20,000 nt of DNA. Origin: an uncultured virus (IMG/VR IMGVR_UViG_3300049629_001705) (Duplodnaviria; Heunggongvirae; Uroviricota; Caudoviricetes). Under the pieces are notes generated by a model. It saw only the letters and a program-made list of their open reading frames with translations, was not told the origin of the DNA and searched no databases. Made by a program: the position numbers and the translations under genes. The DNA lies in the IMG/VR virus record IMGVR_UViG_3300049629_001705; one strand, given 5' to 3'. Positions 1 through 20,000 of the stretch are shown here, in pieces (position 1 is the first letter of the stretch; each line of letters begins with the position of its first letter).

Positions 1-190
1 CTCCTGCAGGACCCGAACAGATTGTAATCTGATTATTTGATAACTTCTCGTAATACTCTTTTTGACTTTCTGATAAAAATTTTTGTTTTGTTTTCTTTTT
101 TAAAATTGAAGTTATGTACTCTTTTTTTGTTTTGTAATTGGAACTTTCTAAAGTTGGGGTAGGAGCTGGATTTTTTTTAGTTCTACTCAT
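1..190 (-). CDS. phoH: PhoH-like ATPase, N-terminal part (runs off the left window edge; not in ORF track)
   Basis: Manual translation from ATG at 190: MSRTKKNPAPTPTLESSNYKTKKEYITSILKKKTKQKFLSESQKEYYEKLSNNQITICSGPAG. The Q-x2-Y...IT-x2-SGPAG segment matches the PhoH pre-Walker A and start of Walker A (GPAGxGK). The start overlaps the upstream gene's TGA as ATGA. Confidence 0.75.
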   Translation of the reverse strand, partial: MSRTKKNPAPTPTLESSNYKTKKEYITSILKKKTKQKFLSESQKEYYEKLSNNQITICSGPAG

Positions 191-1308
191 TTAACTTTGA
201 TTTTTTTTGTTTTTTGGGGTTCTCGTTTATAAACCGTTTTTCCACCATCGGGACTTTCATAAATCCACGGTGTTTCTTTTTCTAATGTATCTATTTGTGA
301 TTTAATCCAATTGAACGTTTTTTTCAATCCTATGGATAGAGGTTGACTGACTTCCCAACCAATTTTTTCTCTATATAGTTTATTGTCTGAGTTTCTACCT
401 TTAACACCTAATGGACATTTGAAACCATACTTCGAAAGGAATTCATCCCCTTCTATGTTTCTTATTTTAATATTTTTTCCTGAAAATTCAATAGCCATTC
501 GTGCTAATTGGTTGATTGTCACCATTTCTTCACTTCCTATATTGACGGGACCAGTGAATTTAGAATTCATCAATCTTAGAACAGCTTCAACACACTCATC
601 GACATATAGAAAAGACCTGGTTTGTTGACCATTCCCCCAAACTTCTAACTCTTCACCGTCGTTTAGTTCTGCGGCTTTTCTACACATCGCTGCGGGAGAT
701 TTTTCACGTCCGCCTGTCCATGTCCCCTGTGGTCCAAATATGTTATGGAATCTGGCTATTCTGACATCTAAACCATAATTTCTGTGATAAGCCAAATAAA
801 TTCTTTCTGAAAAAAGTTTTTCCCATCCGTATTCAGAATCAGGATTTGCGGGGTATGCAGAACTTTCTTCACAATTTGGATTATTGGGGTCTAGTTGGTT
901 GTGTTCTGGATACATACATGCCGATGAGGAATAGAAAACTTTTTTTACTTTTTTCTTAACACATTCATTGGCAACATTCAAATTTATCAAAGAGGAATTG
1001 TGCATTAAATTTGCATCATTTTCGCCTGTGAAAATATACAAAGCACCTCCCATATCGGCTGCTAGTTGATATAATTCATCGACATCCTGTTCGATGACCA
1101 AGTCAACAACTTTAGGGTCAGTTAAATCCCCCAAAATGAATTCGTGACAAATTTCATCTTGAAAAAAATATTCGTGTTTTTTTATATCACAAATTCTAAC
1201 GTGATTTCCTTCCTCTTTTAATCTTTTAGCTAAGTGTCCTCCTATGAAGCCACCGCCACCAAGAACAACTATTTTTTTACCTATTGATTGATTCTTCTGC
1301 AACTTCAT
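187..1308 (-). CDS. GDP-mannose 3',5'-epimerase-like NAD-dependent epimerase (extended SDR)
   Basis: GGGGFIG Rossmann motif, LAADMGG, YSSSACMYP (catalytic Cys position), YGWEK (YxxxK), RFHNIFGPQGTWTGGREKSPAAMCRK and GVKGRNSDN, all GME-family signatures. Confidence 0.88.
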   Translation of the reverse strand: MKLQKNQSIGKKIVVLGGGGFIGGHLAKRLKEEGNHVRICDIKKHEYFFQDEICHEFILGDLTDPKVVDLVIEQDVDELYQLAADMGGALYIFTGENDANLMHNSSLINLNVANECVKKKVKKVFYSSSACMYPEHNQLDPNNPNCEESSAYPANPDSEYGWEKLFSERIYLAYHRNYGLDVRIARFHNIFGPQGTWTGGREKSPAAMCRKAAELNDGEELEVWGNGQQTRSFLYVDECVEAVLRLMNSKFTGPVNIGSEEMVTINQLARMAIEFSGKNIKIRNIEGDEFLSKYGFKCPLGVKGRNSDNKLYREKIGWEVSQPLSIGLKKTFNWIKSQIDTLEKETPWIYESPDGGKTVYKREPQKTKKIKVK

Positions 1309-1912
1309 ATATAATATTCATTTTTTCAAAAATTTTATCGCAACTAATTTGATTACAGCTCCAAGAATTTATAACCGATTCCTCAAAATATTTGGGGGAT
1401 ATCCACCAATCTTCAAAATACATTTCTGGATGTCTTGAGTGAGAGATATCACCACAAATTAATTTGTAACCTTTGGACTCCAACAGTTGTCTTTGTGGTA
1501 ATCTTTCTGCCTCGTTAAAACGGTTTCCTAAATAAGCATCGTGTTCAATTGTTATGATTTTAAATTTGTAGTTGCTGTCAATTATTTTTTGGAGTAATTT
1601 AAATCTGTCTCCACAGCCTTCCATATCCAAGGTTAGATAATCAATAACTTCATTGTCATAATAATCCTTTAGTAATTGATTATAGTCTTGATTGAGACAA
1701 TCTGCTTGAATGAACTTACATCTGCGTTCTTTCCATTGGTTACTGAAATTGATAATATCCAAAGAAATACCGTCCCACCCATTTAATTCGAGTAAGTAAG
1801 TGTTGTTAATTTTTTTTGGTAGGGAGCACCCTAAATCGAGAAACTTACCTGGTTTACCTTGACTTATATTATAAACAAATAAATCTTGACCACATTGGGA
1901 ATATGATTTCAT
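1277..1912 (-). CDS. FkbM-like SAM-dependent methyltransferase (start revised to MKSYSQ at 1912)
   Basis: YSQCGQDLFV, FLDLGCS, NTYLLELNGWDGISLD, IDYLTLDMEG, IITIEHD, FEDWW pattern of FkbM/Methyltransf_21-like proteins. The ORF-track start at 1999 overlaps the upstream gene by 76 bp. Confidence 0.72.
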   Translation of the reverse strand: MKSYSQCGQDLFVYNISQGKPGKFLDLGCSLPKKINNTYLLELNGWDGISLDIINFSNQWKERRCKFIQADCLNQDYNQLLKDYYDNEVIDYLTLDMEGCGDRFKLLQKIIDSNYKFKIITIEHDAYLGNRFNEAERLPQRQLLESKGYKLICGDISHSRHPEMYFEDWWISPKYFEESVINSWSCNQISCDKIFEKMNIIYEVAEESINR

Positions 1913-1923
1913 TTTTTTGTATT

Positions 1924-2532
1924 TTATTTTGAGATTATTTTTCCTTTTTTTCTCAGAATAGTGAGACCATGGTTTATGGGTATTGTCATCCACTCCCATT
2001 TATTTTTATCTAACTCTTCAACCGCTCTATATGGTCCACCAAGACCCCATTCACTTTTTTCAGGATAATTGATAGGATAGAAAAAATTTGGATGGCAACT
2101 ATGACCCATCAAATCGTGTAGTAATATTATTGTGTTTTCATCACTAATCCTATCAATTTCTTCTAATTCTGTTTTTACGTGAGGGTAACTGTGCCAATCA
2201 TCAACATAGATAATATCGTATTTTTCGGTATTTTTTTTCAAAAATTCTATGGCGTCAGATTGTACAAAGGTTTGATATCTCGCCAAGTCCTCAGGAGCTT
2301 TCCAAACGTATTTTGAAATGTCTACTGACGTTAAATGACCACCCAATACTTTACAGGCAACTAAAAAAGGATAACTAGAACCACCATCTCTTACTCCAAG
2401 TTCCAAGATTTTTTTAGCATTCATTTGAAGAGCGATAGAGAAAAAAGTTAAGACGTGTTCAAAATATTGTTTTCCTCCGTCGTTTTTAGTTTTCAAAGTT
2501 CTATTCATCAATTCGACTAAATAATTTTCCAT
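1924..2532 (-). CDS. Class I SAM-dependent methyltransferase (Methyltransf_24-like)
   Basis: ILELGVRDGGSS motif I, LTSVDI, YDIIYVDDWHSYPHV and ILLHD. Confidence 0.8.
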   Translation of the reverse strand: MENYLVELMNRTLKTKNDGGKQYFEHVLTFFSIALQMNAKKILELGVRDGGSSYPFLVACKVLGGHLTSVDISKYVWKAPEDLARYQTFVQSDAIEFLKKNTEKYDIIYVDDWHSYPHVKTELEEIDRISDENTIILLHDLMGHSCHPNFFYPINYPEKSEWGLGGPYRAVEELDKNKWEWMTIPINHGLTILRKKGKIISK

Positions 2533-3341
2533 TAAATTTTTTTTAGAATTTTATTTATACCTTCTTTCAGAGATATTTTTGGTTTCCAATAATTTAAAAT
2601 GTATGGGTCGGGTTCATTTTTTTTATTTTTCTGTACATCATCAGTTTCTGTAGAAGCTAATATTTCACAAGGTATATATTCTCGAATTATTTCAGCAACT
2701 TCTAAGATTGAATTCCATTCAAAACTAGTAATGTGAAGGTTTTTATTTCTATCTATATCATTGTAATTTAAAGATAATATTTCTAAAGCATTAGAACAGT
2801 CTTCAGCATGTAAAAATTGTCTCAACTCGGAACCGTCAGTCAACATTTCTATTTTTCCTTGTTTAGCTTTGAGAATAAAATCGGTTATTACATGTGATTT
2901 TTCCAAATCATGTTCAGGTCCGTATACATTCCAAAATTTTACAGTAAGACCATTTAAAGCTGTGGCGCAAATTTCACCCATAGATTTCAAAAGTCCATAT
3001 GGCGAATAGGACATGTTTGCCATTTGTGAGGAGGCAAAAATAAAAGGTTTATTGAATTTTTTGATTGATTTGAATGTATGAAGAGTTAGTGCTAAATTGT
3101 TTTCAACAAATTCATATGTGTGTTGATACTTTTTTAAGTATCTTGAACCACCTACATCAAAGGCCAAAAACATCACGAAGTCGACATCTTTCATTATTGT
3201 ATCAAGAACATCAGGAATTCTGAGGTCTTGTTTAGGGTCTTTGATGATGTCAAACTCGACCACCTCATGACCTTTATTTTTAAGATATTGACATAATTCT
3301 AATCCTATTTGTCCTTCGGAACCTAAAACCAAATATTTCAT
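2532..3341 (-). CDS. NAD-dependent epimerase/dehydratase (SDR)
   Basis: LVLGSEGQIG Rossmann motif, FASS, YGLLK (YxxxK), WNVYGP and RQFLHAED. Confidence 0.82.
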   Translation of the reverse strand: MKYLVLGSEGQIGLELCQYLKNKGHEVVEFDIIKDPKQDLRIPDVLDTIMKDVDFVMFLAFDVGGSRYLKKYQHTYEFVENNLALTLHTFKSIKKFNKPFIFASSQMANMSYSPYGLLKSMGEICATALNGLTVKFWNVYGPEHDLEKSHVITDFILKAKQGKIEMLTDGSELRQFLHAEDCSNALEILSLNYNDIDRNKNLHITSFEWNSILEVAEIIREYIPCEILASTETDDVQKNKKNEPDPYILNYWKPKISLKEGINKILKKI

Positions 3342-3344: not shown

Positions 3345-3962
3345 TTATCTTTGAACAAAAATTCCACCCATAGAACCTCCATGGGTAATTTCAAATTTAT
3401 AGTTGTATTTAATTATCCATTCAGTAAACGCTAATCTTTCATGTTCGTCAAAATCTTTGTTTCCTCCATGCCAATCATCAAATCTGATATATAATTTATT
3501 CCAATCACACTTTGTTACAAACTCTAAAGCTGACACCGTTGGTTCGTAAATGTCAACATCTATGTTGACTAAACTTATTTTCGAAATTTCGTAGTCTGAT
3601 GGTTTAGTCAGTTTATGAACATCACTGACAATCATTTTTACATTTTTGTATGGTGATAGTTTTTTTAAGGCCTCTTCCTTATTTTTTGGAATTCTATTGT
3701 TGTTAGCAAAAAGAGGATTTGATAAACTGAACATCCCTTCGGACCAATCTGCTGTTTCAGGTAAGGTTTTGTTAGATTTTTCTAAACCCTCAAAATGGTC
3801 TACTGTGAATATTGTCTTATTCGGAAACGATTGAGAAAGTAAAATTGCTGATTCACAACTGAAGGTACCGAACTCCAATACGTCCCCTTGTGTTTCAAAT
3901 TTTTTTACAAAACTAGATAAATCGCTTAAAGAGCAGGATTGTTTGTTTGGACTGGTGTTCAT
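3345..3962 (-). CDS. TylF/MycF/NovP-like sugar O-methyltransferase
   Basis: GDVLEFGTF, VDHFEGL, VNIDVDIYEPT and RFDDW match TylF-family motifs (EFG, DxFxG, DxDxY, DDY/W). Confidence 0.72.
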   Translation of the reverse strand: MNTSPNKQSCSLSDLSSFVKKFETQGDVLEFGTFSCESAILLSQSFPNKTIFTVDHFEGLEKSNKTLPETADWSEGMFSLSNPLFANNNRIPKNKEEALKKLSPYKNVKMIVSDVHKLTKPSDYEISKISLVNIDVDIYEPTVSALEFVTKCDWNKLYIRFDDWHGGNKDFDEHERLAFTEWIIKYNYKFEITHGGSMGGIFVQR

Positions 3963-4792
3963 AGATTTTTAAGATAATTTTCGTAAATATAATCCTCAGC
4001 AATTTGAAGAGACATAGCAGCTTCAAAATTTTTTTGAATGTGAGGCATCATCGAATCATACTTTTCTCTTGACAGAGAAGACAATGTTGGGTCATCCTCC
4101 AAAAATATAACTCCTCTTGGGTCAAAGTATTTTTCAACCACTTTTCTGGACCCCCAATAAACAGGAACTGTTCCCACAGCGAAACAATCGGTTAATTTTT
4201 CTGTGAAATAAGTGTCTGAGTTATCGTTTTCTATTGCCACTGAGAACATATAGTCAACTAAACCATCCTCTTTGTTATTCAACTGATGAGGTCTTCCTGT
4301 ACCAAATAGGTCAACTTTATCTTTTAATTTTTCAACCCAATTCAATCTGTTTTGGTGACCTCTTAACCATCCTTTTGTGGAGGATATCATTGAAACCAAT
4401 TTGGTTTTTTCATGAATTTTTCTATTACGTTCCCAAATCCAAGGTACTGCGTTTGAAATTGTATAAGTGAAAGGGGCTCCGAGCTCTATCAAACTATCCA
4501 CACAAGTGAAAATATACTTGTAATGTTCCTTCACCATGGGCAAATTCTCTAATAGAAATTTAATAGTTCCTTCATTCATTTGAGGTGATTCTAACAACCA
4601 TCCAATTTTCTCTCTTGATGGGTCATTAAATCCCCAATCTTTGATGTAGTTATCCACATATACTGAAATCTTATATGGGTCTTGGGTGTCTCTTGACAAC
4701 CATTTTAACGTTTTGGGATTATTTCTAGCTGAAGAACAATCGTAGTCCCCCCACCAATCTGATACTTTTCTAATTTTAGGTAATTCGCTCAT
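3959..4792 (-). CDS. GT10-like (alpha-1,3/4-fucosyltransferase-like) glycosyltransferase
   Basis: C-terminal YMFSVAIENDNSDTYFTEKLTDCFAVGTVPVYWG matches the GT10 signature (YxFxLAxEN...YxTEK...GxVPxYxG). Confidence 0.8.
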   Translation of the reverse strand: MSELPKIRKVSDWWGDYDCSSARNNPKTLKWLSRDTQDPYKISVYVDNYIKDWGFNDPSREKIGWLLESPQMNEGTIKFLLENLPMVKEHYKYIFTCVDSLIELGAPFTYTISNAVPWIWERNRKIHEKTKLVSMISSTKGWLRGHQNRLNWVEKLKDKVDLFGTGRPHQLNNKEDGLVDYMFSVAIENDNSDTYFTEKLTDCFAVGTVPVYWGSRKVVEKYFDPRGVIFLEDDPTLSSLSREKYDSMMPHIQKNFEAAMSLQIAEDYIYENYLKNL

Positions 4793-4795: not shown

Positions 4796-5614
4796 TTAAT
4801 TTTTTGGTTTCAGTTCACCGTTTATATATTCTACTTCTATTTTATTCCAATCAGGTTGAAACATATCCATGTAGTTTTGTGGTCCACTTGGTCCAAACCA
4901 TACAGATGGAACAAAAACTTTTTTATTTGGATTTTGGTTTAGCAAAGCCGCCCACCAAGAAAATGTAGAATTGGAAATGATATTTGATTTACAAAGTGAC
5001 ATTATCCACATATCGATGTAATCTTCCTCATTTATAAGTGTCACATTATCACTCTTGAAATTTTCTAATAACCAGTTTTTATCATCTCCGAAAAGAAATA
5101 GATGGTCGTAATTTCCGATAATGGTAAGTGCTTTGTCAATATATTCTTTGGAAACACTGGGATGAATGTGGGGGTTTTGTTTATAATCACCAAATCTCAC
5201 GTGTATTGAAACTGTGTTTTCTTGATTAAGTTGAGGATACTTCTCCTTAATTTGTTTGATGAATTCTTCCGTTGGTCCAAAATATTCAATAATGTTTTTG
5301 TCGAATCCCAAAAAGTTTTTTCCGCTTTGGAAGTATCCTTCAAACACAGTGTTGCCTTCTACAGGATTCACATCAGAAAATTCCCATGGACCTTCGTGAA
5401 CTTTTGTAAATCCATCTAAACTATCTATAAATTTAAGTTTTCTGAATACGTTGTCTCGATAGTTCGAAGCGTCTCTACCTTGCATGGGTGTCCACGATTT
5501 GGGTAAAAAAACTGCCTCTCTATGATGTTTCCAAGCTTGACAAAGGGCGTGAGCGGCTTGGAACATTTGATTTCCAAGTCCACCCATCAGATTACAAGAA
5601 ATTAAATTATTCAT
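4796..5614 (-). CDS. GT11 alpha-1,2-fucosyltransferase-like glycosyltransferase (start revised to MNNLIS at 5614)
   Basis: MGGLGNQMFQ, EGYFQS, SIHVRFGDY, IISNSTFSWWAA and PSVWFG. The start at 5614 forms an ATGA overlap with the upstream stop. Confidence 0.9.
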   Translation of the reverse strand: MNNLISCNLMGGLGNQMFQAAHALCQAWKHHREAVFLPKSWTPMQGRDASNYRDNVFRKLKFIDSLDGFTKVHEGPWEFSDVNPVEGNTVFEGYFQSGKNFLGFDKNIIEYFGPTEEFIKQIKEKYPQLNQENTVSIHVRFGDYKQNPHIHPSVSKEYIDKALTIIGNYDHLFLFGDDKNWLLENFKSDNVTLINEEDYIDMWIMSLCKSNIISNSTFSWWAALLNQNPNKKVFVPSVWFGPSGPQNYMDMFQPDWNKIEVEYINGELKPKN

Positions 5615-6237
5615 TTTTGAAATGTTGTGTTTTCCCAAGATTCCCAAACAAATGGATATTCCCATTTAAGTTTGAAACCAATTTGAGTTAATCCCTCTTG
5701 AATTTTTTTATGTCTCTCTTCATAGTTTTCACCCATTCTGTGGTACTGAACTTGAATATAGTTGAACTTTTGTAAAATACCTGACTTAATCCATTCTTCC
5801 ATAAGAGGGTACTCCTCCCCCTCGATATTAACCTGCATCAAATCTACCTTATCAATATTGTGTTTATCCAAATAATATTCTAAGGTGTGACATTTAACGG
5901 TTTGAAGGTTATTAGAATTCAAATAAGCGGATGTCGCATCACCATCAACCGCAAAAGACAACTCTTTTTCTTCTGTGGAAATACCAGCATTTTCAGTTTT
6001 GATTTTGTCTCTATTGTTTTTGAGGTAATAATCAAATTCTACAATCATTTTGTCGTAAAATTCTTTTATTGGTTCAATGACCAAAACATTACAATTGAAT
6101 TTAGTTGAAACTCTTTTAGTCCAAAGACCGTGAAAACCACCAAGTTCAATGACTTGAGAATTTTCATTTAAGGGATAATCTAATACGAGAATATCGTCTC
6201 CTTTATCTGCTCTCCATTTTGCGTGTATTTCTGACAT
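5611..6237 (-). CDS. FkbM family methyltransferase
   Basis: VIELGGFHG, VIEP, VDLMQVNIEGEEY and IQVQYH. Confidence 0.8.
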   Translation of the reverse strand: MSEIHAKWRADKGDDILVLDYPLNENSQVIELGGFHGLWTKRVSTKFNCNVLVIEPIKEFYDKMIVEFDYYLKNNRDKIKTENAGISTEEKELSFAVDGDATSAYLNSNNLQTVKCHTLEYYLDKHNIDKVDLMQVNIEGEEYPLMEEWIKSGILQKFNYIQVQYHRMGENYEERHKKIQEGLTQIGFKLKWEYPFVWESWENTTFQK

Positions 6238-6240: not shown

Positions 6241-6951
6241 TTATAATTTTTTATAAGGTGTTTTATTTCTGATTTTATTTGTTGTCTTCATGACATTTGC
6301 CATATTAACTTTATGGTCATTAATCGGATTAGATTCGTTGTAAATGTATAAAATATCTGTCAAAAATCTATAATGTTCCTCTCCTGACATTTCAAACATA
6401 GGAAACATAAATGCCAAGTCGCCGGCAACACTCCAAAAATTACCATCTTCATCTTTCAAATCAGAATCTTCAATTTTCTTCCACAGCCATGATTTCCATG
6501 TTCTCATATGTGAAAGAGTAAATGTTTGTTTTCTAACATCTGAAAATTGTTGTGGTGGTTTGGCAAATCCTGGCCTACCATCGTGATACCTGAAGGAACC
6601 ACTTGTCATCCAAATTTCGGAGTCTTTATAAGTTTCATTTATTGAATCAAAAACATTTGAGTTTGGTAGCCAATCGTCACCGTCAACTTCTATACAAATT
6701 TCATCATCAGGTATGTTTAATCCTCTTATAATTTGGTCGTAATTTCCAGGTTGAAACTTTTTTGTATTGTTTTCAACTAAAATAAATCTTTTGTCATTAT
6801 AGATTGTCTTCTTTATTACTTCTCGGGTAAAATCAGTTGATAAATCATCTGTTATATAACATGTAAAATTTTTGTGTGTTTGTCCCATAATACTGAACAA
6901 ACATCTTTCGATAAAAGTTTGACAATTGTATGTGGTTGTCAGTATAATCAT
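6241..6951 (-). CDS. GT2 (GT-A fold) glycosyltransferase
   Basis: IILTTTYNCQTFIERCLFSIMGQT, ITDDLSTD, VDGDDW (DxD) and a late GDLAF. Confidence 0.87.
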   Translation of the reverse strand: MIILTTTYNCQTFIERCLFSIMGQTHKNFTCYITDDLSTDFTREVIKKTIYNDKRFILVENNTKKFQPGNYDQIIRGLNIPDDEICIEVDGDDWLPNSNVFDSINETYKDSEIWMTSGSFRYHDGRPGFAKPPQQFSDVRKQTFTLSHMRTWKSWLWKKIEDSDLKDEDGNFWSVAGDLAFMFPMFEMSGEEHYRFLTDILYIYNESNPINDHKVNMANVMKTTNKIRNKTPYKKL

Positions 6952-8579
6952 GAAATAATTTTTATATATTCTTCTTTGATTTGTTTAGCCACGTTTGTAG
7001 TAAAATATTTTTCGATATCAGAAGGTGGGTCAAATTTTTCTTTTGAAGTTATCACACCCAAGGAATCTACCTTATAAATCCAACCTGGTTTACCCGACAA
7101 CCAACCTTCAATAGTTGTTCTTCCAAGTTGTATCCCTGCTGTTTCTGAACAACCTTTCAAATACTTTTCAATATTCCAAGTTGCTGGAAAATATTTAACA
7201 TTTGATTCTCTTTGTAATGCGTCTAAAAAGTTACCTTTGTTTTCTCCAACAATCCACAATTCTTTACCTATTTTTTGTGTGTATTCAATTAGGTCCATTA
7301 AAGTTTCTCTTCTGAGATAATCCAAAGTTCCAACAAATAGAACATAACCTGATTCATCTAACTCAGATTTTGTGAATTTTGACTCATCGATTGGATTATA
7401 AATTATTTCAATATCATTTTCTGAAATTTGAAATTTTGTAATAAGATAATCTTTTATCTCGGGTCTTATTGCAATATATTTTTTTATTGATGGATGTATC
7501 ATCGGATTTTCTAATTCGATTATTTCCGAATGGATTGAACAAATTTTATCAATTTCGGGATAAAAATTTAAAATTCTTTCAGCAACAGGTTTGTGTTGGA
7601 TGTGAATTATATCAAAGTTTACTTCCGAAACCCTATACATCATGTTCACTTGAGAAACTTTATATCCATTCCCGTCGTCGAACCCCCATTTACCATCTCC
7701 TAATTTGAAACCAGGGGCTTGTTCAAACGATAAACATTTGATTCCATTCTTCCTTGCTAAATCCGTAAGTGGTCCACCGATTTGTGACATTACAGTCACT
7801 TCACAATTCAATTTTTTAAGACCTCTGGCCAATTCATAAACATACAACTCAGAACCAGTGAAAGTTCTAAAATTTAAACAACTTAGAAGAACATTTATTT
7901 TATCTTTCTCTCTATCAAACAAAATTTTTTGAGGAAGATTTGAAGAATATTTTTGTATGAATAATTGCCGATTAGATTCCCATTTCTCATTTGTCATACC
8001 GATAGATTGATGAGTGATTCTAATGTTAGTGATTACCCCAACTTTAACTCCTTCTAAATAATTTTCAAAACAAAATGGAATATCGTAAAAATGAAACCCT
8101 TTGAAATCTTCATTAAAGTTTTTTCTTATTCTTTTTTTGTGAATTGCTATGAATAGTCCATCTACAACAACAACAGGTTTTATATCGTTACCAAATGGTT
8201 CTGAGTACTTAGATTCCCATTTTTTTGTTCCTTGTTGATGGTTTACTATTCCATACATTTTTCTTCTGTTTTGCCACCACTGTCCACTTTCAGGCATATG
8301 AGTTGTGCCCGCAACACCAAGAATACCGAAGTCTGAATTGTTAAAATGATTGATTAATTTAGGATACCATGCAGAAGTATCAAATGTTATATCGTCATGA
8401 CAAAGAACTACAATATCCGTAGTTGCCTCTCTCAAAATTTCATTGTAGATTTCTGAGAGAGATTTTTCTCCATTGTTTACTTTCTCTATAACGAGATTTT
8501 TTTTAAAACCAGAGCTTTTGATAAAATATTCTTTGAGCTTTGGATTAGATTCTCTAGTTGAATATCCTATTGTAATCAT
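6948..8579 (-). CDS. Two-domain glycosyltransferase: N-terminal GT2-like (Glyco_tranf_2_5-like) plus C-terminal GT-B/GT4-like domain
   Basis: N-terminal: SLSEIYNEILREATTDIVVLCHDDI, GILGVAG, VDGLFIA, GFHFYDI. C-terminal: TGSELYVYELARGLKKLNCEVTV, DIIHIQH, IIYNPID, VLFVGTL, GRTTIEGWLSGKP. Confidence 0.82.
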   Translation of the reverse strand: MITIGYSTRESNPKLKEYFIKSSGFKKNLVIEKVNNGEKSLSEIYNEILREATTDIVVLCHDDITFDTSAWYPKLINHFNNSDFGILGVAGTTHMPESGQWWQNRRKMYGIVNHQQGTKKWESKYSEPFGNDIKPVVVVDGLFIAIHKKRIRKNFNEDFKGFHFYDIPFCFENYLEGVKVGVITNIRITHQSIGMTNEKWESNRQLFIQKYSSNLPQKILFDREKDKINVLLSCLNFRTFTGSELYVYELARGLKKLNCEVTVMSQIGGPLTDLARKNGIKCLSFEQAPGFKLGDGKWGFDDGNGYKVSQVNMMYRVSEVNFDIIHIQHKPVAERILNFYPEIDKICSIHSEIIELENPMIHPSIKKYIAIRPEIKDYLITKFQISENDIEIIYNPIDESKFTKSELDESGYVLFVGTLDYLRRETLMDLIEYTQKIGKELWIVGENKGNFLDALQRESNVKYFPATWNIEKYLKGCSETAGIQLGRTTIEGWLSGKPGWIYKVDSLGVITSKEKFDPPSDIEKYFTTNVAKQIKEEYIKIIS

Positions 8580-11916: not shown

Positions 11917-11918
11917 AA

Positions 11919-12302: not shown

Positions 12303-12598
12303 ATCTGAAAGTTCGGATATTGATTACTTGAATTGTATCTGTTTGTTTTTATTCCGTTTCTACGTTCAGCTATATCATCTATAGTTCCCGCAGCAGGGTT
12401 ATAAACATCTAAAAATATACCTGTTCCCCTACCCAATCTGTCACCGTCTGCTAAGGCGTCTTGATTAGTCGCGGAATACGGATTACCAACACCGTTGTAA
12501 TCATTTTTAGGAATAAGTTTTGCTCTTTCTAACTCAGCGATTGCTGTTAGCTGATTAGGAACATCTTGAGATAAATCAATAGGAAGGTCAGTTGCCAT
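12299..12598 (-). CDS. Hypothetical protein, 99 aa
   Basis: ORF with an ATGA overlap to the WYL gene. No family recognised. Confidence 0.7.
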   Translation of the reverse strand: MATDLPIDLSQDVPNQLTAIAELERAKLIPKNDYNGVGNPYSATNQDALADGDRLGRGTGIFLDVYNPAAGTIDDIAERRNGIKTNRYNSSNQYPNFQI

Positions 12599-12602
12599 AA
12601 AA

Positions 12603-13070
12603 TTAAATTTTCGAAATTAAATCGTTTATTTTTTTTAGACTTTCCGTCACGGCCACATCATATTTTTCTCTTGTGGACAAGTGTTTTTGAGAAGGTCTAA
12701 CATTTGTGAAATCCTTTTTTTCATGAGGTTTTATAAATTGATTCTGCATTCCCGTTTCCATTTTGTTTTTCTTCACCGCTTCGGGATTTCTTCTCATAAA
12801 ATCCAACTCATAATTTACCCAATTTTTCATAGGGAAACCACCGTTCAATACAAATGAAGGTTCTTTGTCTGAACCCTTGAAATTGTCAAAAAAATTTTTG
12901 ATTCTTTTGAGTTGTTTGTAAGTGATATAATTTTTATTCTGAAGTTCTTTGTTTCTTTTATATCCTTCGTCATTTTCATTAAAATCCTTCACCTTGTAGA
13001 AACAAATTTTCAAATGTTTCCTCAGGTGTTCTGGAAATTCAATTTCTTTATCGTATAAATTTTTATTCAC
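12603..13070 (-). CDS. Hypothetical protein, 155 aa (GTG start)
   Basis: ORF in operon context with an 8-bp overlap with the upstream gene. Confidence 0.7.
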   Translation of the reverse strand: MNKNLYDKEIEFPEHLRKHLKICFYKVKDFNENDEGYKRNKELQNKNYITYKQLKRIKNFFDNFKGSDKEPSFVLNGGFPMKNWVNYELDFMRRNPEAVKKNKMETGMQNQFIKPHEKKDFTNVRPSQKHLSTREKYDVAVTESLKKINDLISKI

Positions 13071-13863
13071 TTTTTAAAAGTTTTACTAAAGAGGAAATTG
13101 ATATTCCTTCTCTCTCCGCTTGTCTTTTTAAAGATTTAAGATTTTTTTTCAAAATTTTTGAAACGGTAATTTCTTTTTTGTTTACATCAGAACTAACAGA
13201 ATCTTTTGATTTCATCAAAATGTCTTCCAACATTTTGAAAACCTTTTGTTTTCTCAATTCCTCGATTCTCTGTTTTTCGACTAACCTGATTCTCATTTTA
13301 CTACCAGGTTTTTTACCTTTATTTATTTTGACTGTTTTACCGAATTCATTTGCTCTCTCTTTTGCGTTATCAACACCCATGTCCTTCAAAATTTTAATTG
13401 TATCTTCTGGTGTTTTGCCTGAAGTTTCTTCATATCCAAAAGCTTTAGATAAATCTACTTCGTCTACTTCAACAGATTCCCCATAATAAGTTCTATAACC
13501 ACGAGCAATTGGGTCGTTTGTGATTCTTGAGGCGGCAACAGTTTGGTCCATAGTCTTTTTTGGATGTAATGCTGGGTCCAATATTGGAATTTTGGAAAGA
13601 GACATCACACCATCAGAATCTACCAATTCTTCAATTTCTTTTTTTACATCAGAGGTTTTTTTTGGAGATTTTTTTTTGGTCACTTTATTTATGTATCTTT
13701 TTACGGCTTCAACTTTGTCTTTAGGTACCTTGACCATAACATCATTATTTTTTGCTTCGGAAATAGTATTTTCTACCGCAATATATAATGAATAATCTTT
13801 TCCCTTGTTTTTCAAGAAAAAATAATAAGGGGATGAATAATATTCCAAACCTTCTGTAATCAT
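13063..13863 (-). CDS. Hypothetical Lys/Glu-rich protein, 266 aa; first gene of the leftward unit
   Basis: Long ORF directly downstream of the GTATTTAT motif in the divergent intergenic region. Confidence 0.75.
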   Translation of the reverse strand: MITEGLEYYSSPYYFFLKNKGKDYSLYIAVENTISEAKNNDVMVKVPKDKVEAVKRYINKVTKKKSPKKTSDVKKEIEELVDSDGVMSLSKIPILDPALHPKKTMDQTVAASRITNDPIARGYRTYYGESVEVDEVDLSKAFGYEETSGKTPEDTIKILKDMGVDNAKERANEFGKTVKINKGKKPGSKMRIRLVEKQRIEELRKQKVFKMLEDILMKSKDSVSSDVNKKEITVSKILKKNLKSLKRQAEREGISISSLVKLLKSE

Positions 13864-13916
13864 CTTTTGAGTTTTATTCTATAAATACTCGTTGGTAATG
13901 TATTTATCATTAGTTT
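13864..13916. promoter_or_regulatory. Divergent promoter region with inverted ATAAATAC (13881-13888) / GTATTTAT (13900-13907) motif pair
   Basis: This is the only strand switch in the window. The 8-bp inverted repeat has an 11-bp spacer. TATAAATA (T4 late-promoter consensus) lies at 13880-13887, and the same motif recurs at 16155-16167. Confidence 0.55.
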
Positions 13917-16130
13917 ATGTCTTATCAGAATATTAATCAATACAATTTCCAAAAATGGAGACTAATCCCCTTTAATGAGGTTACAGATTTATGTCTTGCT
14001 AGCGATGAAAAAGATTACGACCAAGAAGTGGTTTTTTCTCCATTACTGATAGGGGAGGATGATGGTAATAGAATGCCTTTCAAATTTGATTTTGATTCAA
14101 CAGGTACAACAATATGTCAAAATAATGATTGTCATTTTAGTAGTGATACAATTGTTTCACAAAATTATTGGAATCCATCTGATATTGACCCGAATTTATG
14201 TCCTTCAGCATCTACTCTTTGTGATGTTGGTCTTACGGGAATTGATAATGGGTTAGTAGAGAAAATGTCAGGAGAAACGATTGAAATTACAACTGGGTTA
14301 TACACAAATATTTCTGATAAGTTCAGTAGGTACAAGTATGATAGAAGGATGAAACTACATCCAATAACGGGTTTTACAACAACTCAGAATAGATTATGGA
14401 ACGATGACTCATATACATATCAGTTGGAATATGCCTATGAAAACGCATCTGTAGGTTATGTTGCAGATTTATTCGGTGGATTTTTTCAAGGGTTTTATAA
14501 AATACCCGGTTATGATTATCAGGTATTTCCTGAAAGGGTTAGTTTAGGATGGACTGCCGAATTTATGTTAAAACATAGATGGTGGGGGGACACCTACGTT
14601 GGATTGAATAAAAGATATCCTGAAAACAAGGGTACATTTTTTTATATGGGGGCAAGAGCCGAAAACAAATTTTATCACTATGCAGACGGCTCACCAAAAC
14701 AAGATACAGGTTACACAAGGGTTACTTCAGGATTGACATGTATGCATACTTGTGAGTGTTTGAACACTGGTATTACTGCCGAGCATTCGTGTATTCCTGT
14801 TTATCAACCATCGGGTGTAACATCTTATACCTGTTTGTGTGGTTGTGGTCAACCGACAGCAGAAGCATCTGTACCTGAATTGGACCCGTTATATGATGGA
14901 ATTTCTAATGCTCTATCAGTCAGACTATCTGGAGATAGCGGTAATCCAAGAATATGTGTGAAAACTTATACAATCACAGGTGCTTGCGAATTTACGGGCG
15001 TCTGTACCTCGGCACAAACTTATGTTACGGGAACCTCGGTAAACGAATGGTGTTCGACAAGGGGTATTTTTCATGATTGCGACAATACAAATTATATACT
15101 TCAGGAAAATTGGGTTCAAGTTGACGTTGTTTTTAGAAGACGAGAATATTTTGAGGGATGTGATTTGTTGGATTTGGGAGGATTGGGATTATTGGTTTCG
15201 GAACAATACACCGCAACAACTGCCAACAATAGCTTGAGTTTGATAGAACCACCTCTTACACATAGAGAAGTTTATGACCCAGCAACAACTGAAATTGTAA
15301 AATTCAAAGATTCTTGGATGGAAGAGAAAAATTTCAGAATCGGTGACTTGGAAATTTATATAAATGGTAGATTGTTTATGGTCATTTTGGATTTTGAAGA
15401 AATAATTCCGAGACTTTTAAATACACCAAGAGAGAAACAAATTGGTGTTGGTTATAATATTTCTATTGGGGGAGGAACTCAAGGGTTACATGACAATTTA
15501 ACTTTCTCGGGTGGGTGTCCGCCAACAATTGATGATATCGTTTATCAACAAGACCCTGAATGTTTGACCACTGAAGATTTGAATAATACAATTTATTCGG
15601 GACTTACAACAAACATTAGACTAGAGGAATTATTTGCTGGTAGTTTTATAGGTAATATAAGTGCCTTTAGAATGTATACTGAACCATTGAATGCTGCGCA
15701 GGTTGCACACAATTTCAGGGTTTTGAAAAATAGATATAATTTATTAGACCCAAATTGTCCGAATTGTATAGTTCCACCGCCGTCTCAAACGCCTACACCA
15801 CCTGTAACTCCTACAAATACACCTACTCCACCTGTAACTCCTACAAATACACCTACTCCATCAATTACACCACAAGTAGTTTATTCAGATAATTTATGGA
15901 CAGATTCTGTTTGGAATAATGCTTGTTCGATGGCGGGATATGGACCCGCTAATGTACAAATATATTCATTTGTACCATGGACAGAATTACAACCAGGGGA
16001 TTTTGTTTATGGTAACTTACTTTGTAGCATACCCCCAATAGGTTCAGAAAGTATTATAACTGATGGTGGTAAATTTATTCAAATAGACCCTGGTACTGGT
16101 TTGATTGTAAACATAGGATTATGTCCATAA
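13917..16130 (+). CDS. Putative virion structural protein, 737 aa: Cys-rich, ConA/LamG-like region, Pro/Thr linker, small C-terminal Cys-bounded domain
   Basis: WVQVDVVF...LEIYINGRL...ISIGGG...FIGNISAFRMYTEPLNAAQVAHNF resembles the LamG-like (Laminin_G_3) C-terminal motif. PPVTPTNTPT repeats follow. No signal peptide is visible. Confidence 0.6.
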   Translation: MSYQNINQYNFQKWRLIPFNEVTDLCLASDEKDYDQEVVFSPLLIGEDDGNRMPFKFDFDSTGTTICQNNDCHFSSDTIVSQNYWNPSDIDPNLCPSASTLCDVGLTGIDNGLVEKMSGETIEITTGLYTNISDKFSRYKYDRRMKLHPITGFTTTQNRLWNDDSYTYQLEYAYENASVGYVADLFGGFFQGFYKIPGYDYQVFPERVSLGWTAEFMLKHRWWGDTYVGLNKRYPENKGTFFYMGARAENKFYHYADGSPKQDTGYTRVTSGLTCMHTCECLNTGITAEHSCIPVYQPSGVTSYTCLCGCGQPTAEASVPELDPLYDGISNALSVRLSGDSGNPRICVKTYTITGACEFTGVCTSAQTYVTGTSVNEWCSTRGIFHDCDNTNYILQENWVQVDVVFRRREYFEGCDLLDLGGLGLLVSEQYTATTANNSLSLIEPPLTHREVYDPATTEIVKFKDSWMEEKNFRIGDLEIYINGRLFMVILDFEEIIPRLLNTPREKQIGVGYNISIGGGTQGLHDNLTFSGGCPPTIDDIVYQQDPECLTTEDLNNTIYSGLTTNIRLEELFAGSFIGNISAFRMYTEPLNAAQVAHNFRVLKNRYNLLDPNCPNCIVPPPSQTPTPPVTPTNTPTPPVTPTNTPTPSITPQVVYSDNLWTDSVWNNACSMAGYGPANVQIYSFVPWTELQPGDFVYGNLLCSIPPIGSESIITDGGKFIQIDPGTGLIVNIGLCP
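15798..15860 (+). repeat. Perfect 30-bp tandem duplication encoding PPVTPTNTPT
   Basis: ccacctgtaactcctacaaatacacctact occurs at 15798-15827 and 15828-15857, followed by cca. Confidence 0.92.
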
Positions 16131-16154: not shown

Positions 16155-16167
16155 GTATTTATAAATA
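16155..16167 (+). promoter_or_regulatory. Putative late-type promoter motif GTATTTATAAATA (contains palindrome TATTTATAAATA)
   Basis: Lies in the 44-bp gap before ATG 16175 and contains both GTATTTAT and TATAAATA, as in the 13864-13916 region. Confidence 0.5.
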
Positions 16168-16174
16168 AAAAAAT

Positions 16175-16453
16175 ATGGCCTGTAGTAAACTATCTCTAAC
16201 TAACACCGGTAGTACAGTTGTTTCTTTCAACTATCAAGAATGCAGTAATTCAGAATGGGAATATCAAGTTCAGTTGAATCCCAACGAAACAAAAAATATT
16301 TGGTGTGTGACAAGTACATTTTCTTATGCTGCGGGTTTCAATATTATTATTTCCGAAACAACATTCCCTCCAACACCAACACCAAGTAATACACCCGAAC
16401 CCACTCCTACACCAACACCAACACCAACACCAACACCATCGTCAGCCCCTTAA
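16175..16453 (+). CDS. Small Cys-containing protein with C-terminal (PT)n tail; paralog of the N-terminal domain of the downstream giant protein
   Basis: MACSKLSLTNTGSTVVSFNYQECSNSEWEYQVQLNPNETKNIWC aligns without gaps to MNCVKYSIKNSGTTVVTFSYQRCDNSEFESQVKLAPNQNKTIWA. Confidence 0.8.
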   Translation: MACSKLSLTNTGSTVVSFNYQECSNSEWEYQVQLNPNETKNIWCVTSTFSYAAGFNIIISETTFPPTPTPSNTPEPTPTPTPTPTPTPSSAP

Positions 16454-16462
16454 ATAAAAAAA

Positions 16463-19400
16463 ATGAATTGTGTTAAATATAGTATAAAAAATAGTGGTAC
16501 TACCGTAGTCACTTTCAGTTATCAAAGATGTGATAATTCCGAATTCGAATCACAGGTCAAACTTGCTCCAAATCAAAATAAAACAATTTGGGCAATAAAA
16601 GATACTTTGAATATCCCAAATTTTTTTTCCAACACAACATCAGTTGAGGAGGTTTTAGAGACTATACCAGAGTGTGTTACCTTAGTCAATATTTTTGGTG
16701 TGGGAACTTTCTATTACAATCCCTCAACAAATATTAGGGGTCCTCAAATGGTTATACCAAATGATATTACACAATCGTTAGATGTTGCACATTCACAAGA
16801 AAAACTTTGGAAATTATATAACCCTGCACCTTTTACTTATGTTATTAGAGAATGGAGTCTGTTAGGTGACCCACCTTACCAAGTCTCTTCAACTTACAGG
16901 GATTTGACTTTTCCGAATAATATTGTTATCACTGCTCCTGCTAGCCCTGGTCTTTGTCAAGCACCGAATGGTGATTTGGTATTCATTGATTTTGAAAGGA
17001 ACGTTTGGGAGCTTACAATACCAACAGCACCGTCTACACTCATGACAGGAACGTTGAAATATCAACTACCCCCGGGTTATTTTGTGGGTGGTGATTTTTT
17101 GGTCACCGTAAATAGTAAATTATTGGTTGCTTCAGATAAAGAAATAGGAGGAGTTCCATATATTGTATTATATCAATTCGATTATAATACAGGTAATTTT
17201 GAATTTGAAAGTAAAACTGTTGCGATAGATAACCTTACTGGTACGGGAGGTATTGCAATATTCAACAACGAAATATACATTTATGGTGTTTATGTTTATA
17301 AAATGGATAAGACATCACCGTATGGTGGTGTGAGGATATCGAATTTAGGTGCGCAGGGAGCATCATCGACTATAAAATGTAATACCGCATTTATGATTGG
17401 TTCAGAGACTCCCACACCTACTCCAACACCGACAACAACACCAACTGTTACGCCAACAACTTTTACGGGAGTTACACCCACCGCAACTTCAACAGTGCCT
17501 GTAACTCCAACTCCAACACCTACTTCACAACTATGTTATTCATATGCTTCATTCGATATTGACTGTAATAATTCTGTAATTGAGTATATCGATTGTTGTG
17601 GAAACTGTGATTATTCAGGACCTTATACTATAGGAACAGGTTATACGTTGACAGGTGTTTGTATTCAAAATGAATCTATAACAGGACAACACGTTTCTAA
17701 TATTGTGTATAGTGGGTCATGTATTTGTGATATAACACCTACACCTACTCCTACAGTAACAAATACGGCTACACCTGGTGTAACACCTTCTTGTACTCCA
17801 ACAGAGTCTGAAACACCTACTCCTACTCCAACCGCTACAGAAACTCAAGCAGCTGAAACACCTACTCCTACTCCAACCGCTACAGAAACTCAAGCAGCTG
17901 AAACACCTACTCCTACTCCAACCGCTACAGAAACTCAAGCAGCTGAAACACCTACTCCTACTCCAACTAATACAGAAACTCAGGTTGCTGAGACACCTAC
18001 TCCTACTCCAACCGCTACAGAAACTCAAGCAGCTGAAACACCTACTCCTACACCAACCGCTACAGAAACTCAAGCAGCTGAAACACCTACTCCTACTCCA
18101 ACCGCTACAGAAACTCAAGCAGCTGAGACACCTACACCAACTCCTACTGTGACAAAAACTTGCACACCAACTTTAACTGAGACACCTACACCTACTCCAA
18201 CTAATACAGAAACTCAGGTTGCTGAGACACCTACACCAACTCCTACTGTGACAAAAACTTGCACACCAACTTTAACTGAGACACCAACTTGTACACCGAC
18301 ATTCACACCAACCTCTACAAAAACATGTTGTGAAATTAATATTCTAACAAACTCATCTCTTGACGTTAGCATAGAGGGCGTCACAATAAATGGAAGTTCG
18401 GCTACTTATGTTTCGGGTCAACCGTTACCTAACACACCAGGTAATGGAACATTCTTGTGTTCGACTACTGTTGGTACCGTAGACGTTAGAGTTTCTGTAT
18501 TCAACTCTGTTGCCGCACAAAAAATAACACTAACAGACAGTTTTGGTAACGTTTATTGTTCAAATATAACAGGTACAGGTCCTTCAAATTATGATTTCAA
18601 TGGTATAACATTCAATTGTGAAACGGCTCTGACTATCTTGGCGGAGGATGGTTCATGTACTCCACTACCTGAGACTTCCACTCCTACACCGACTGAAACA
18701 CCAACACCAACACCTACAGCAACAAGCAGTGAAACTCCCACAAATACACCAACTCCTACAGCAACGGAAACCCAAGCCGCTGAAACACCTACACCAACAC
18801 CAACTCCTACGGCTACAGATTTAAGTACTATAACTACATATACAATTTCAGGATGTACTAATCTAAATGTTTTAGTTGTCGATTTAGGACCAGGATTAAT
18901 AGTTCCTGGAGATGTAAACTATTACACATTCACAGGAGCAACACCAAGTGGATGTTATTCAGTCATTGGTAAGATAAATGCTCCGATAGACGACGCGTTT
19001 ACCGCATCATTTGGATATGGTGGATGTAATGATTGTGAGATTTCTAATATAACTCCAACCCCAACTAATACACCAAGTGAAACTCCAACTAATACACCTA
19101 CTGAAACAGCAACTAACACACCAACTGAAACTTTAACATCTACTCCTACACCAACAAATACCGAAACATCAACCTCTACACCTACACCAACAAACACATC
19201 AACACAAACTCCAACTCCATCACCAATTTTAAACTGTGAAACATTTACTTTCATAGGTAACAATGCTACAACAACAAGTAATAGTGCGATAAATGATGGA
19301 ACATCAGGATGGGATTCATCGGCATATTCTTTAGAGACATTTACTGGTCCTGTTTCCGTAACCTTCCAAACTTCTGCGAATGGTAATATTTTAATGGGTG

Positions 19401-20000
19401 GATTCTCTTACAACCCAACCGCTACCCCTGGCAGCACATATGAGGATACGTCATATGGTATTTACCTGTATAATAGTGACCAAATTGAAATATATGAAAA
19501 CGGTGGTCAAGTTGCCGTTTTAAATGTCGGTACTGTTGTTTCATCATCTGATGTGTGGAAAGTGGATTATGATGGAATAAGTGTAAAGTATTATTATAAT
19601 TCAACTTTAATTTACACATCAACCAACGCTGTAACACAACCATTACATGTATTCTTCCCTCTTTTCACTCCTAATGAAGGGGCTGTTGATATTTGTGTTA
19701 TAGGAACATTATCACCAACACCTACCCCTACACCAACTTTAACTCAAACACCAACTACAACAATAACTGAAACCCCAAGTGAAACACCTAGTGAAACACC
19801 AACGAACACACCAACACCAACTACAACTGACTTAAGTTCGGTTACTACATACACAATTTCGGGATGTACCACTTTGAACGTATTAGTTGCTGATTTAGGA
19901 CCATCGACATTAGCATCTGGTGACGTATTCAATTTCACATTCACAGGAGGAACACCAAGTGGATGTTATAGAATTGTTGAGAAGACCGTGGCAACTCCAA
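16463..20000 (+). CDS. Giant modular Thr/Pro-rich, Cys-rich protein (>1179 aa, open at window end; not in ORF track); putative tail-fibre/adhesin-like virion protein
   Basis: Manual translation from ATG 16463 shows no stop to 19999. Apparent order: shared N-domain, propeller-like region, PT linker, Cys-rich domain, ETPTPTPTATETQAA array, beta-rich domain, repeated DLS..TTYTISGC domain (two copies) flanking a ConA/SPRY-like domain. Confidence 0.88.
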   Translation, partial: MNCVKYSIKNSGTTVVTFSYQRCDNSEFESQVKLAPNQNKTIWAIKDTLNIPNFFSNTTSVEEVLETIPECVTLVNIFGVGTFYYNPSTNIRGPQMVIPNDITQSLDVAHSQEKLWKLYNPAPFTYVIREWSLLGDPPYQVSSTYRDLTFPNNIVITAPASPGLCQAPNGDLVFIDFERNVWELTIPTAPSTLMTGTLKYQLPPGYFVGGDFLVTVNSKLLVASDKEIGGVPYIVLYQFDYNTGNFEFESKTVAIDNLTGTGGIAIFNNEIYIYGVYVYKMDKTSPYGGVRISNLGAQGASSTIKCNTAFMIGSETPTPTPTPTTTPTVTPTTFTGVTPTATSTVPVTPTPTPTSQLCYSYASFDIDCNNSVIEYIDCCGNCDYSGPYTIGTGYTLTGVCIQNESITGQHVSNIVYSGSCICDITPTPTPTVTNTATPGVTPSCTPTESETPTPTPTATETQAAETPTPTPTATETQAAETPTPTPTATETQAAETPTPTPTNTETQVAETPTPTPTATETQAAETPTPTPTATETQAAETPTPTPTATETQAAETPTPTPTVTKTCTPTLTETPTPTPTNTETQVAETPTPTPTVTKTCTPTLTETPTCTPTFTPTSTKTCCEINILTNSSLDVSIEGVTINGSSATYVSGQPLPNTPGNGTFLCSTTVGTVDVRVSVFNSVAAQKITLTDSFGNVYCSNITGTGPSNYDFNGITFNCETALTILAEDGSCTPLPETSTPTPTETPTPTPTATSSETPTNTPTPTATETQAAETPTPTPTPTATDLSTITTYTISGCTNLNVLVVDLGPGLIVPGDVNYYTFTGATPSGCYSVIGKINAPIDDAFTASFGYGGCNDCEISNITPTPTNTPSETPTNTPTETATNTPTETLTSTPTPTNTETSTSTPTPTNTSTQTPTPSPILNCETFTFIGNNATTTSNSAINDGTSGWDSSAYSLETFTGPVSVTFQTSANGNILMGGFSYNPTATPGSTYEDTSYGIYLYNSDQIEIYENGGQVAVLNVGTVVSSSDVWKVDYDGISVKYYYNSTLIYTSTNAVTQPLHVFFPLFTPNEGAVDICVIGTLSPTPTPTPTLTQTPTTTITETPSETPSETPTNTPTPTTTDLSSVTTYTISGCTTLNVLVADLGPSTLASGDVFNFTFTGGTPSGCYRIVEKTVATP
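17810..18277 (+). repeat. Coding tandem repeat array of 45-bp and 54-bp units (order A A A B A A A C B C)
   Basis: A = ETPTPTPTATETQAA (45 bp; 17810, 17855, 17900, 17990, 18035, 18080). B = ETPTPTPTNTETQVA (45 bp; 17945, 18179). C = ETPTPTPTVTKTCTPTLT (54 bp; 18125, 18224). Confidence 0.93.
18818..19984 (+). repeat. Dispersed domain duplication within the giant ORF (18818-18973 and 19829-19984, 52 aa each)
   Basis: DLSTITTYTISGCTNLNVLVVDLGPGLIVPGDVNYYTFTGATPSGCYSVIGK versus DLSSVTTYTISGCTTLNVLVADLGPSTLASGDVFNFTFTGGTPSGCYRIVEK, with no gaps. Confidence 0.9.

Follow-up and report, generated by a model that had tools for sequence, protein, structure and literature searches.

A GT60 glycosyltransferase beside Thr/Pro-rich stalk genes in freshwater jumbo phages: a candidate route to O-glycosylated virion proteins

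Virion glycosylation by phage-encoded glycosyltransferases (GTs) is already known: in mycobacteriophages, phage GTs decorate virion proteins (Freeman et al. 2023, as cited in PMC12619734), and the same has been suggested for Xanthomonas phage XacN1, in whose virions at least two proteins are Schiff-stained and whose annotated GTs are two, ORF328 (GT9) and ORF334 (PMC5852040). Family GT60 has likewise been described in prokaryotes and protists. In Dictyostelium and T. cruzi, GT60 enzymes initiate O-GlcNAc chains of the mucin type on domains rich in Ser/Thr, and a relative located in the cytosol primes a hydroxyproline of Skp1 (PMC8724618; PMC7185993), with DxH in place of DxD as the metal-binding motif of the family (PMC7185993). 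Among freshwater jumbo phages, the moraphages have four core GT groups that their authors left unexplained (PMC12619734); these papers are cited here and below from excerpts. Here, we describe a 20,000-nucleotide stretch of uncultured-virus DNA (IMG/VR record IMGVR_UViG_3300049629_001705; hereafter “the window”), in which an earlier note had proposed that a leftward run of sugar genes glycosylates the Thr/Pro-rich proteins encoded beside it. We consider it probable, though well short of certain, that this phage does O-glycosylate the Thr/Pro stalks of its own predicted virion proteins, with a GT60 enzyme priming Thr/Ser and phage GTs extending the chain. Glycosylation of the stalks by phage enzymes is supported by the position of GT60 after the stalk genes, by the finding of both together in another, distant group of phages, for which negative controls were available, and by the Schiff staining of XacN1. 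The enzymes to be credited have changed, however: judged by gene neighbourhoods, those best linked to the stalks lie to the right of the window, and the link of the leftward cassette is indirect.

A GT60 operon beyond the Thr/Pro stalk genes

The window forms the right-hand end of one 76,575-bp contig (~77 kb) with genes for a terminase, a portal, a T4-like major capsid protein and a head protease; judged by its sequence, the contig comes from a freshwater jumbo phage of the T4-like kind. At least 84% of the words of the stretch recur in each of 23 DNA runs from lake-water metagenomes. Using the 737-aa Thr/Pro protein of the window (Table 1) as a query against IMG/VR, we recovered 223 relatives among 224 candidate stretches and kept the best 80 as related loci. 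The related contigs include genome-size pieces of 309–326 kb, and the relative G001 is 321,283 bp long with direct terminal repeats. Two contigs, L004 (99.993% identical to window positions 6631–20000) and L007 (99.8–100%), are so close to the window that both were taken as the continuation of the contig past its end. The earlier note had also considered a cellular O-antigen locus with wzx/wzy nearby. This was ruled out: phage head genes are present on the contig, and flippase PF01943, Wzy_C ligase/polymerase PF04932 and initiating phosphotransferase PF02397 were each found in 0/5 complete relatives, in searches whose positive controls responded in 13/14, 9/14 and 9/14 cases, respectively. The reported lack of a flippase, a polymerase and an initiating phosphoglycosyltransferase therefore extends to these five genomes, with the qualification that an initiating-type enzyme, GT60, is encoded just outside the window.

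Three diverging proteins with long Thr/Pro tracts had been reported and are indeed present, with 39, 34 and 424 tract residues, numbers that 0/200 shuffles reach. The third is truncated by the contig end; its full size in near-identical contigs is 1371–1386 aa, and in L004 and L007 the next gene encodes a fourth Thr/Pro protein, of 410 aa. Obvious transmembrane helices are missing, as had been noted (maximum 19-residue hydropathy 1.43). The stalk proteins are predicted virion appendage proteins, a prediction supported indirectly by the gene neighbourhoods described below and by the distribution of the TATTTAT element. Within the large protein, a 45-bp (15-aa) tandem repeat (window positions 17808–18144) is one copy shorter in L007, and this difference between near-identical contigs suggests that the population may contain stalks of different lengths, unless it is an assembly effect. 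Across G001, tracts occur in 9/321 open reading frames (ORFs), several of them in the baseplate region. Longer versions of the proteins of the stalk-gene interval carry LamG domains in L032 and L038, while L060 and L046 possess collagen-repeat genes in this interval, one of them with an S74 fibre chaperone (L060).

Further repeat-rich proteins were seen elsewhere in these genomes. A 342-aa Thr/Pro protein, 88% identical in G001, is encoded upstream of the terminase block (L002:10008-11036) and has a ~70-aa domain in common with the large window protein, where it is repeated. Another protein, of ~2,000 aa or more, consists of Gly-Ser/Thr triplets (GTSGSS repeats; L163:3-5417 and L179:15766-17283, both on the minus strand, across the ends of G001); it is found among the baseplate-region Thr/Pro genes of G001 and may be a second O-glycan acceptor or a collagen-like fibre.

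In L004 and L007, the GT60 gene (421 aa; L007:18028-19293) starts 1,989 bp beyond the window end and heads an operon that continues with GT25, an uncharacterised 295-aa protein and an HtrL/YibB-domain protein. The GT60 protein matches PF11397 with 230.7 bits, against a cut-off of 21 (E 4.6e-68), and contains a DxH motif, D93-S94-H95, in which D93 and H95 do not vary across 34 close or 39 distant sequences. A structural model (predicted local distance difference test, pLDDT, 78) matches GT-A enzymes, and polypeptide GalNAc-transferases rank high among its Foldseek matches. Protist Golgi mucin-type GT60s have a Golgi-type membrane anchor; in the phage protein we found no hydrophobic anchor of this kind (maximum 19-residue hydropathy 0.76).

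Co-occurrence of GT60 and Thr/Pro tracts

GT60 is present in 57 of the 80 related loci; 21 of the remaining 23 reach the contig end first, and in L060 the gene lies farther along the same contig. The gene directly upstream of GT60 is Thr/Pro-rich in 52/57 cases, the upstream sequence holds 207–950 tract residues, and GT60 itself has a median identity of 84% in the lineage, higher than the other GTs. When 101 distinct GT60 loci were compared, all close kin, the upstream gene was tract-rich in 69 of the 97 that have one.

Outside this lineage, GT60 matches were found in four of 50,697 annotated phage records, Xoo-sp13, XacN1 (where the match is ORF334) and the Stenotrophomonas phages CM1 and RAS14, and in none from mycobacteriophages. 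The three GT60 phages that we examined all possess the block of GT60, the 295-aa protein and HtrL, together with a protein of more than 3,000 aa with C-terminal tracts, which is encoded beside the baseplate-wedge gene or its positional counterpart; in XacN1, Thr/Pro genes flank the sheath, baseplate-wedge and head-completion genes. Genome-wide, these three cultured phages have 37, 42 and 31 matches to (S/T)P-TP-(S/T)P, compared with 0–2 Thr-Pro motifs in each of 14 hand-picked large phages without GT60, including CBB, XbC2, GAP32 and EJP2. A quick tree of 123 sequences, unrooted and without a clade test, and in which some contigs from metagenome-assembled genomes may be phage, groups the cultured-phage GT60 with Burkholderiales-type proteins (Shimodaira–Hasegawa-like approximate likelihood ratio test, SH-aLRT, 99) and places the window-lineage GT60 among freshwater viral and Bacteroidota-labelled sequences. 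Co-occurrence with Thr/Pro genes, which had been put forward as a check on the GT10/GT11/FkbM cluster, is seen for GT60 in two distant phage groups; the leftward cassette is linked to these genes indirectly.

Other neighbours and settings of GT60 were also noted. In the cultured GT60 phages a carbamoyltransferase gene stands directly after GT60 and may decorate the glycan, and the genome G000 (L001:1-2436) has two tandem Nol-like carbamoyltransferases. An unrelated, smaller phage with a Thr-Pro motif (G018, 108 kb, complete) also encodes a GT60, a distant one (33%), next to genes that look structural (L481:10304-11323). Bacterial GT60 genes are found beside large Thr/Pro-tract proteins in L448, L457, L461, L475, L444 and L422 (Sphingomonadaceae, Ralstonia, Chthoniobacter), a possible cellular pairing.

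Several observations weigh against stalk glycosylation by GT60. On the tract side, where we sampled 42 of the 131 loci with the pattern, taking one from each contig of at least 40 kb, and examined 37, GT60 was found in 10/37 Thr-Pro-bearing viral contigs and in one of the eight that are at least 90% complete, which implies that tracts do not need GT60. On the enzyme side, a tract lies within 10 kb in 24/39 divergent viral GT60 loci, leaving 15 without, and within 8 kb in 19/78 bacterial loci, leaving 59 without. G045 (linear, CheckV 100%) has GT60 and no Thr-Pro motif by pattern, and in L008 GT60 is missing from the 10 kb next to the stalk gene; L008 is also the sole relative whose right flank, complete over 10 kb, shows unrelated genes after the 737-aa homolog, through either rearrangement or misassembly. 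In G043, GT60 is without nearby tracts and tracts are found elsewhere in the genome. Thus, GT60 phages mostly bear tracts, while tracts do not imply GT60. Moreover, because the 80 related loci are close kin and amount to about one observation, and the cultured GT60 phages form one clade, the data hold about two independent GT60-Thr/Pro pairings. The enzyme adds further points of this kind: in Foldseek, the teichoic-acid GTs TarS and RmlT take ranks 1–3 and polypeptide GalNAc-transferases ranks 4–12 with similar E-values, so the fold by itself leaves the acceptor undecided, and the terminator-like hairpin found between stalk genes and GT60 in 34/38 distinct upstream regions indicates that the enzyme is probably transcribed apart from its substrates. 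As for XacN1, electron microscopy did not reveal tail fibres, so that “appendage” may mean short surface domains; it has a GT9 as well as GT60; and the excerpted paper names neither an enzyme family nor a linkage nor, in its text, the stained proteins (PMC5852040). Raw spectra of XacN1 virions are deposited (PXD008065).

The exceptions G045 and L008, the lack of GT60 in 7/8 near-complete Thr-Pro-bearing viral records and the many bacterial GT60 loci without tracts nearby would all fit a simpler account, in which the tracts serve simply as flexible linkers, either unmodified or non-virion, GT60 acts on another phage or host protein, and adjacency reflects lineage history. We regard this as improbable, since GT60 and tracts occur together in two distant phage groups whose GT60s belong to different subclades, the Rak2-like jumbo phages CBB, XbC2, GAP32 and EJP2 have neither GT60 nor tracts, and the known mucin-type acceptors of GT60 are Ser/Thr-rich domains (PMC8724618). 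A second account would follow Skp1, with a phage prolyl hydroxylase converting prolines of the tracts or of collagen-like fibres to hydroxyproline, which GT60 would then glycosylate. GT60 is soluble, as is the cytosolic Skp1 transferase (PMC8724618), and G001 encodes three PF13640 2-oxoglutarate-Fe(II) oxygenases along with collagen fibres, which gives such a route some footing and counts against direct priming of Thr/Ser. However, these oxygenases lie at least 40 kb away from GT60, and PF13640 matches were found in 0/3 cultured GT60 phages and once, weakly, in G043. A hydroxyproline route is conceivable in the freshwater lineage; overall we consider it quite improbable.

The leftward sugar cassette and transcription signals

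Returning to the window itself (Table 1), the five GT genes described previously, which encode six GT domains in all, can be recognised by Pfam and, for the 403-aa GT4-like protein, by PHROG 7162, as can two nucleoside diphosphate (NDP)-sugar epimerases (Pfam). Three of the four methyltransferases described stand, Methyltransf_24 and FkbM over the cut-off and TylF just below it, whereas for the fourth (1277–1912) we obtained zero matches in Pfam, PHROG and NCBIfam and an Atlas lead, namely Methyltransf_21 in 15% of the members of one cluster. The glycan run had been called back-to-back with the stalk genes; the two do share a neighbourhood and diverge, but eight non-glycan ORFs are interleaved, with an 82-aa ORF, the dUTPase and the 3'-5' exonuclease separating the variable cassette from GT4, and five further ORFs separating GT4 from the stalk genes.

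Table 1 Features of the window and its right edge
Position	Strand	Feature	Support
187..1308	-	GDP-mannose 3,5-epimerase-like, 373 aa	Pfam Epimerase 1e-43
1277..1912	-	Possible FkbM-like methyltransferase, 211 aa from second ATG; weak support	Atlas lead
1924..2532	-	Methyltransferase, Methyltransf_24; weak rhamnosyl O-methyltransferase/CmcI match	E 4e-12
2532..3341	-	Second NAD-dependent NDP-sugar epimerase/dehydratase	E 1e-23
3345..3962	-	TylF-like O-methyltransferase	Pfam TylF 2e-4, under cut-off; PHROG 6608 9e-13
3959..4792	-	GT10 (fucosyltransferase-family) glycosyltransferase	Pfam E 2e-12
4796..5614	-	GT11 (fucosyltransferase-family) glycosyltransferase	Pfam E 3e-17
5611..6237	-	FkbM-family methyltransferase	Pfam; TIGR01444 over cut-off
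6241..6951	-	GT2 glycosyltransferase	Pfam E 1e-13
6948..8579	-	Two-domain GT2-like + GT4 glycosyltransferase, lineage-core gene	Pfam
8760..10063	-	dUTPase + 3'-5' exonuclease; DNA-metabolism genes breaking the glycan run, outside the proposed system	Pfam, PHROG
10060..11271	-	GT4-like glycosyltransferase, 403 aa, lineage core	Weak in Pfam; PHROG 7162 E 2e-42
11326..13863	-	Five conserved non-glycan ORFs: 196, 127 (WYL-like), 99, 155, 266 aa; ~2.6 kb	
13864..13916	.	53-bp divergent intergenic region, TATTTAT on both strands	
13917..16130	+	Cys-rich protein, 737 aa: head of ~620 aa conserved (LamG-like lead), Thr/Pro tract of 39 residues, C-terminal part variable	
16175..16453	+	92-aa protein: ~55-aa N-terminal module common to the next two genes, 34-residue Thr/Pro tail	
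16463..20000	+	Large Thr/Pro protein, truncated by contig end; six tracts, only 3 Lys/Arg, small Cys-containing domains between	
20000..20000	+	Contig end; then, in L004/L007, 410-aa Thr/Pro protein, terminator-like hairpin, GT60 operon	

Gene order around GT4 and the stalk genes is kept in relatives, while the cassette to the left of the GT2-GT4 gene is often swapped. The GT2-like + GT4 gene has a homolog in 71/80 related loci and zero matches in the 50,697 phage records, and two additional GT genes lie to the left of the window. The epimerase at 187–1308 is similar over its full length to solved GDP-mannose 3,5-epimerase structures (E 2e-92; next-best family 2e-28) and is the predicted source of GDP-L-galactose, which GT10 and GT11 could plausibly use as a donor.

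This cassette could instead be a system of its own, remodelling a glycan on the host surface (lipopolysaccharide, LPS; capsule; or a host glycoprotein), in the manner of the “LPS” islands of cyanophages, a function compatible with glycosylation of the stalks by GT60. It varies among relatives and stands apart from the stalk genes, and similar sugar islands occur without GT60, as in cyanophage P-SSM2, which has 1 Thr-Pro motif and presumably carries such an island. Clusters of this type have been read as O-antigen diversifiers (PMC7824862), and in XacN1, some of whose virion proteins are stained, only two GTs are annotated (PMC5852040). Several features nevertheless count against a separate system: in relatives, GT10, GT11 and FkbM families have moved into the GT60 operon (homologs in 18, 3 and 2 of the 101 loci, respectively), and in G001 a GT9 gene and a 1229-aa FkbM-GT4-GT9 fusion (L179:10422-15717) adjoin three further Thr/Pro genes. 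Membrane-pathway genes were found in 0/5 complete genomes, although host enzymes could serve, which leaves room for host-surface remodelling by the cassette. We consider remodelling unlikely, albeit a possibility to be taken seriously.

Hypermodification of phage DNA by the GTs, also raised earlier, is a weak alternative and seems to us very improbable. Its best candidate is the 403-aa GT4, which adjoins the dUTPase and exonuclease genes. Homologs of this GT occur in 138 phage records, mostly of Escherichia phages, and in an E. coli phage they adjoin helicase and polymerase genes; the one record checked is without GT60 and tracts, making this GT4 the most likely exception. However, PF00303 thymidylate synthase gave a single match in each of five complete genomes (5/5), with no second homolog (dCMP hydroxymethylase), and in G001, the genome in which the motif was read, the enzyme has GLPFN with the canonical Asn, which we take to mark dUMP specificity. 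Tet_JBP dioxygenase was found in 0/5 complete genomes, in a search without a responding positive control. XacN1 DNA is cut by four restriction enzymes (PMC5852040, supplement legend).

The TATTTAT element of the divergent region is a candidate late promoter, as judged by its distribution. In G001 it is found upstream of 8/13 structural, 5/9 tract, 2/15 replication/housekeeping and 0/13 GT genes, and of 100/321 ORFs overall. Across relatives it precedes 30/35 distinct 737-aa homologs, 68/84 other tract genes and 0/35 GT60 genes; among 187-aa tract genes, which closely follow the preceding gene, the figure is only 1/40.

Additional features of the related genomes were recorded. Genes for TonB-dependent/outer-membrane beta-barrel receptors are present on the phage (L001:15452-18831 in G000; L169:12060-15335 in G001), and these, like a G001 protein (L171:15239-17146) that carries a sorting domain for type IX secretion, fit a Bacteroidota host. 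At ~190-226 kb, G001 (L173-L174) contains dozens of short ORFs with common N-terminal motifs, such as 'LTESDL' and 'NLNENISRVKELM'.

A proposed pathway and its relation to known systems

Taken together, these data suggest a pathway in which the stalk proteins would be made together with the structural genes, and the GT60 operon (GT60, GT25, the 295-aa protein and HtrL/YibB) would be transcribed apart from them, behind its terminator. In the host cytoplasm, and without a lipid carrier, GT60 would add an alpha-linked N-acetylhexosamine, probably GlcNAc, to Thr/Ser. The operon enzymes, and probably also the swappable leftward cassette (GT10, GT11, GT2, methyltransferases and GDP-L-galactose), would then extend and cap the chain to give strain-specific glycans, and dense glycans would stiffen and protect stalks that bear variable, lectin-like binding domains. 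The contribution of the leftward cassette is the weakest step: provided that GT60 priming holds, we would put extension and capping by this cassette at slightly under an even chance. More tentatively still, several jumbo-phage lineages may possess a complete cytoplasmic mucin-type pathway, in which GT60 primes about a dozen appendage proteins and swappable cassettes of fucosyltransferase-family, methyl and L-galactose enzymes produce a strain glycocalyx, a phage “serotype” system convergent with the mucins of animals and protists.

Mucin-type O-glycosylation is known from the eukaryotic Golgi. If our proposal is correct, it would be at work in the bacterial cytoplasm as well, giving a function to prokaryotic GT60s, explaining the glycoprotein bands of XacN1 and suggesting a target for the numerous GTs that the abundant jumbo phages of fresh water encode. 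Glyco-engineering would likewise gain a useful tool, namely a soluble enzyme able to prime Thr/Pro peptides. In the literature searched, which did not cover subscription papers, we found no description of GT60 and mucin-like stalks together in a phage.

Among known systems, the “LPS” islands of T4-like cyanophages resemble the leftward cassette as variable clusters of GTs and NDP-sugar enzymes (PMC7824862), although P-SSM2 is unlike the window lineage in having no GT60 and a single Thr-Pro motif. In mycobacteriophages, glycans are reported on the C-termini of capsid and tail-tube proteins (PMC12619734), as opposed to the mucin-like stalks proposed here. Moraphages are similar to the window lineage as freshwater jumbo phages with predicted Bacteroidota hosts, four core GT orthogroups and many common core genes; they reach 307 kb, compared with 326 kb for complete relatives here, and in the excerpts of their main text mucin, threonine, epimerase and methyltransferase go unmentioned (PMC12619734). 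Of the moraphage core, G000/G001 contain terminase, portal, protease, capsid, sheath, gp25, gp6, PolB, dUTPase, PhoH, a ClpA-like ATPase, a peptidase, a sigma factor and a single-stranded DNA-binding protein, while lysine-tRNA ligase, glutaredoxin and UvsW were not seen among the scanned G000/G001 ORFs; the nearest capsid matches in the searched collections have 42–46% identity over about half of the protein. XacN1, with its carbamoyltransferase after GT60 and, in the excerpted paper, only two annotated GTs, differs from the freshwater lineage in these respects and shares with it the block of GT60, the 295-aa protein and HtrL, as well as many Thr/Pro proteins in structural regions. Finally, the phage GT60 differs from the protist enzymes in being soluble, in that it would act in the bacterial cytoplasm with no Golgi, and in a ~90-aa C-terminal beta domain of unknown kind, yet it resembles CAZy GT60/PF11397 in scoring over the Pfam cut-off, in its DxH motif, in a predicted GT-A fold with GT27-type polypeptide GalNAc-transferases among the better structural matches, and in the Ser/Thr-rich nature of its candidate acceptors.

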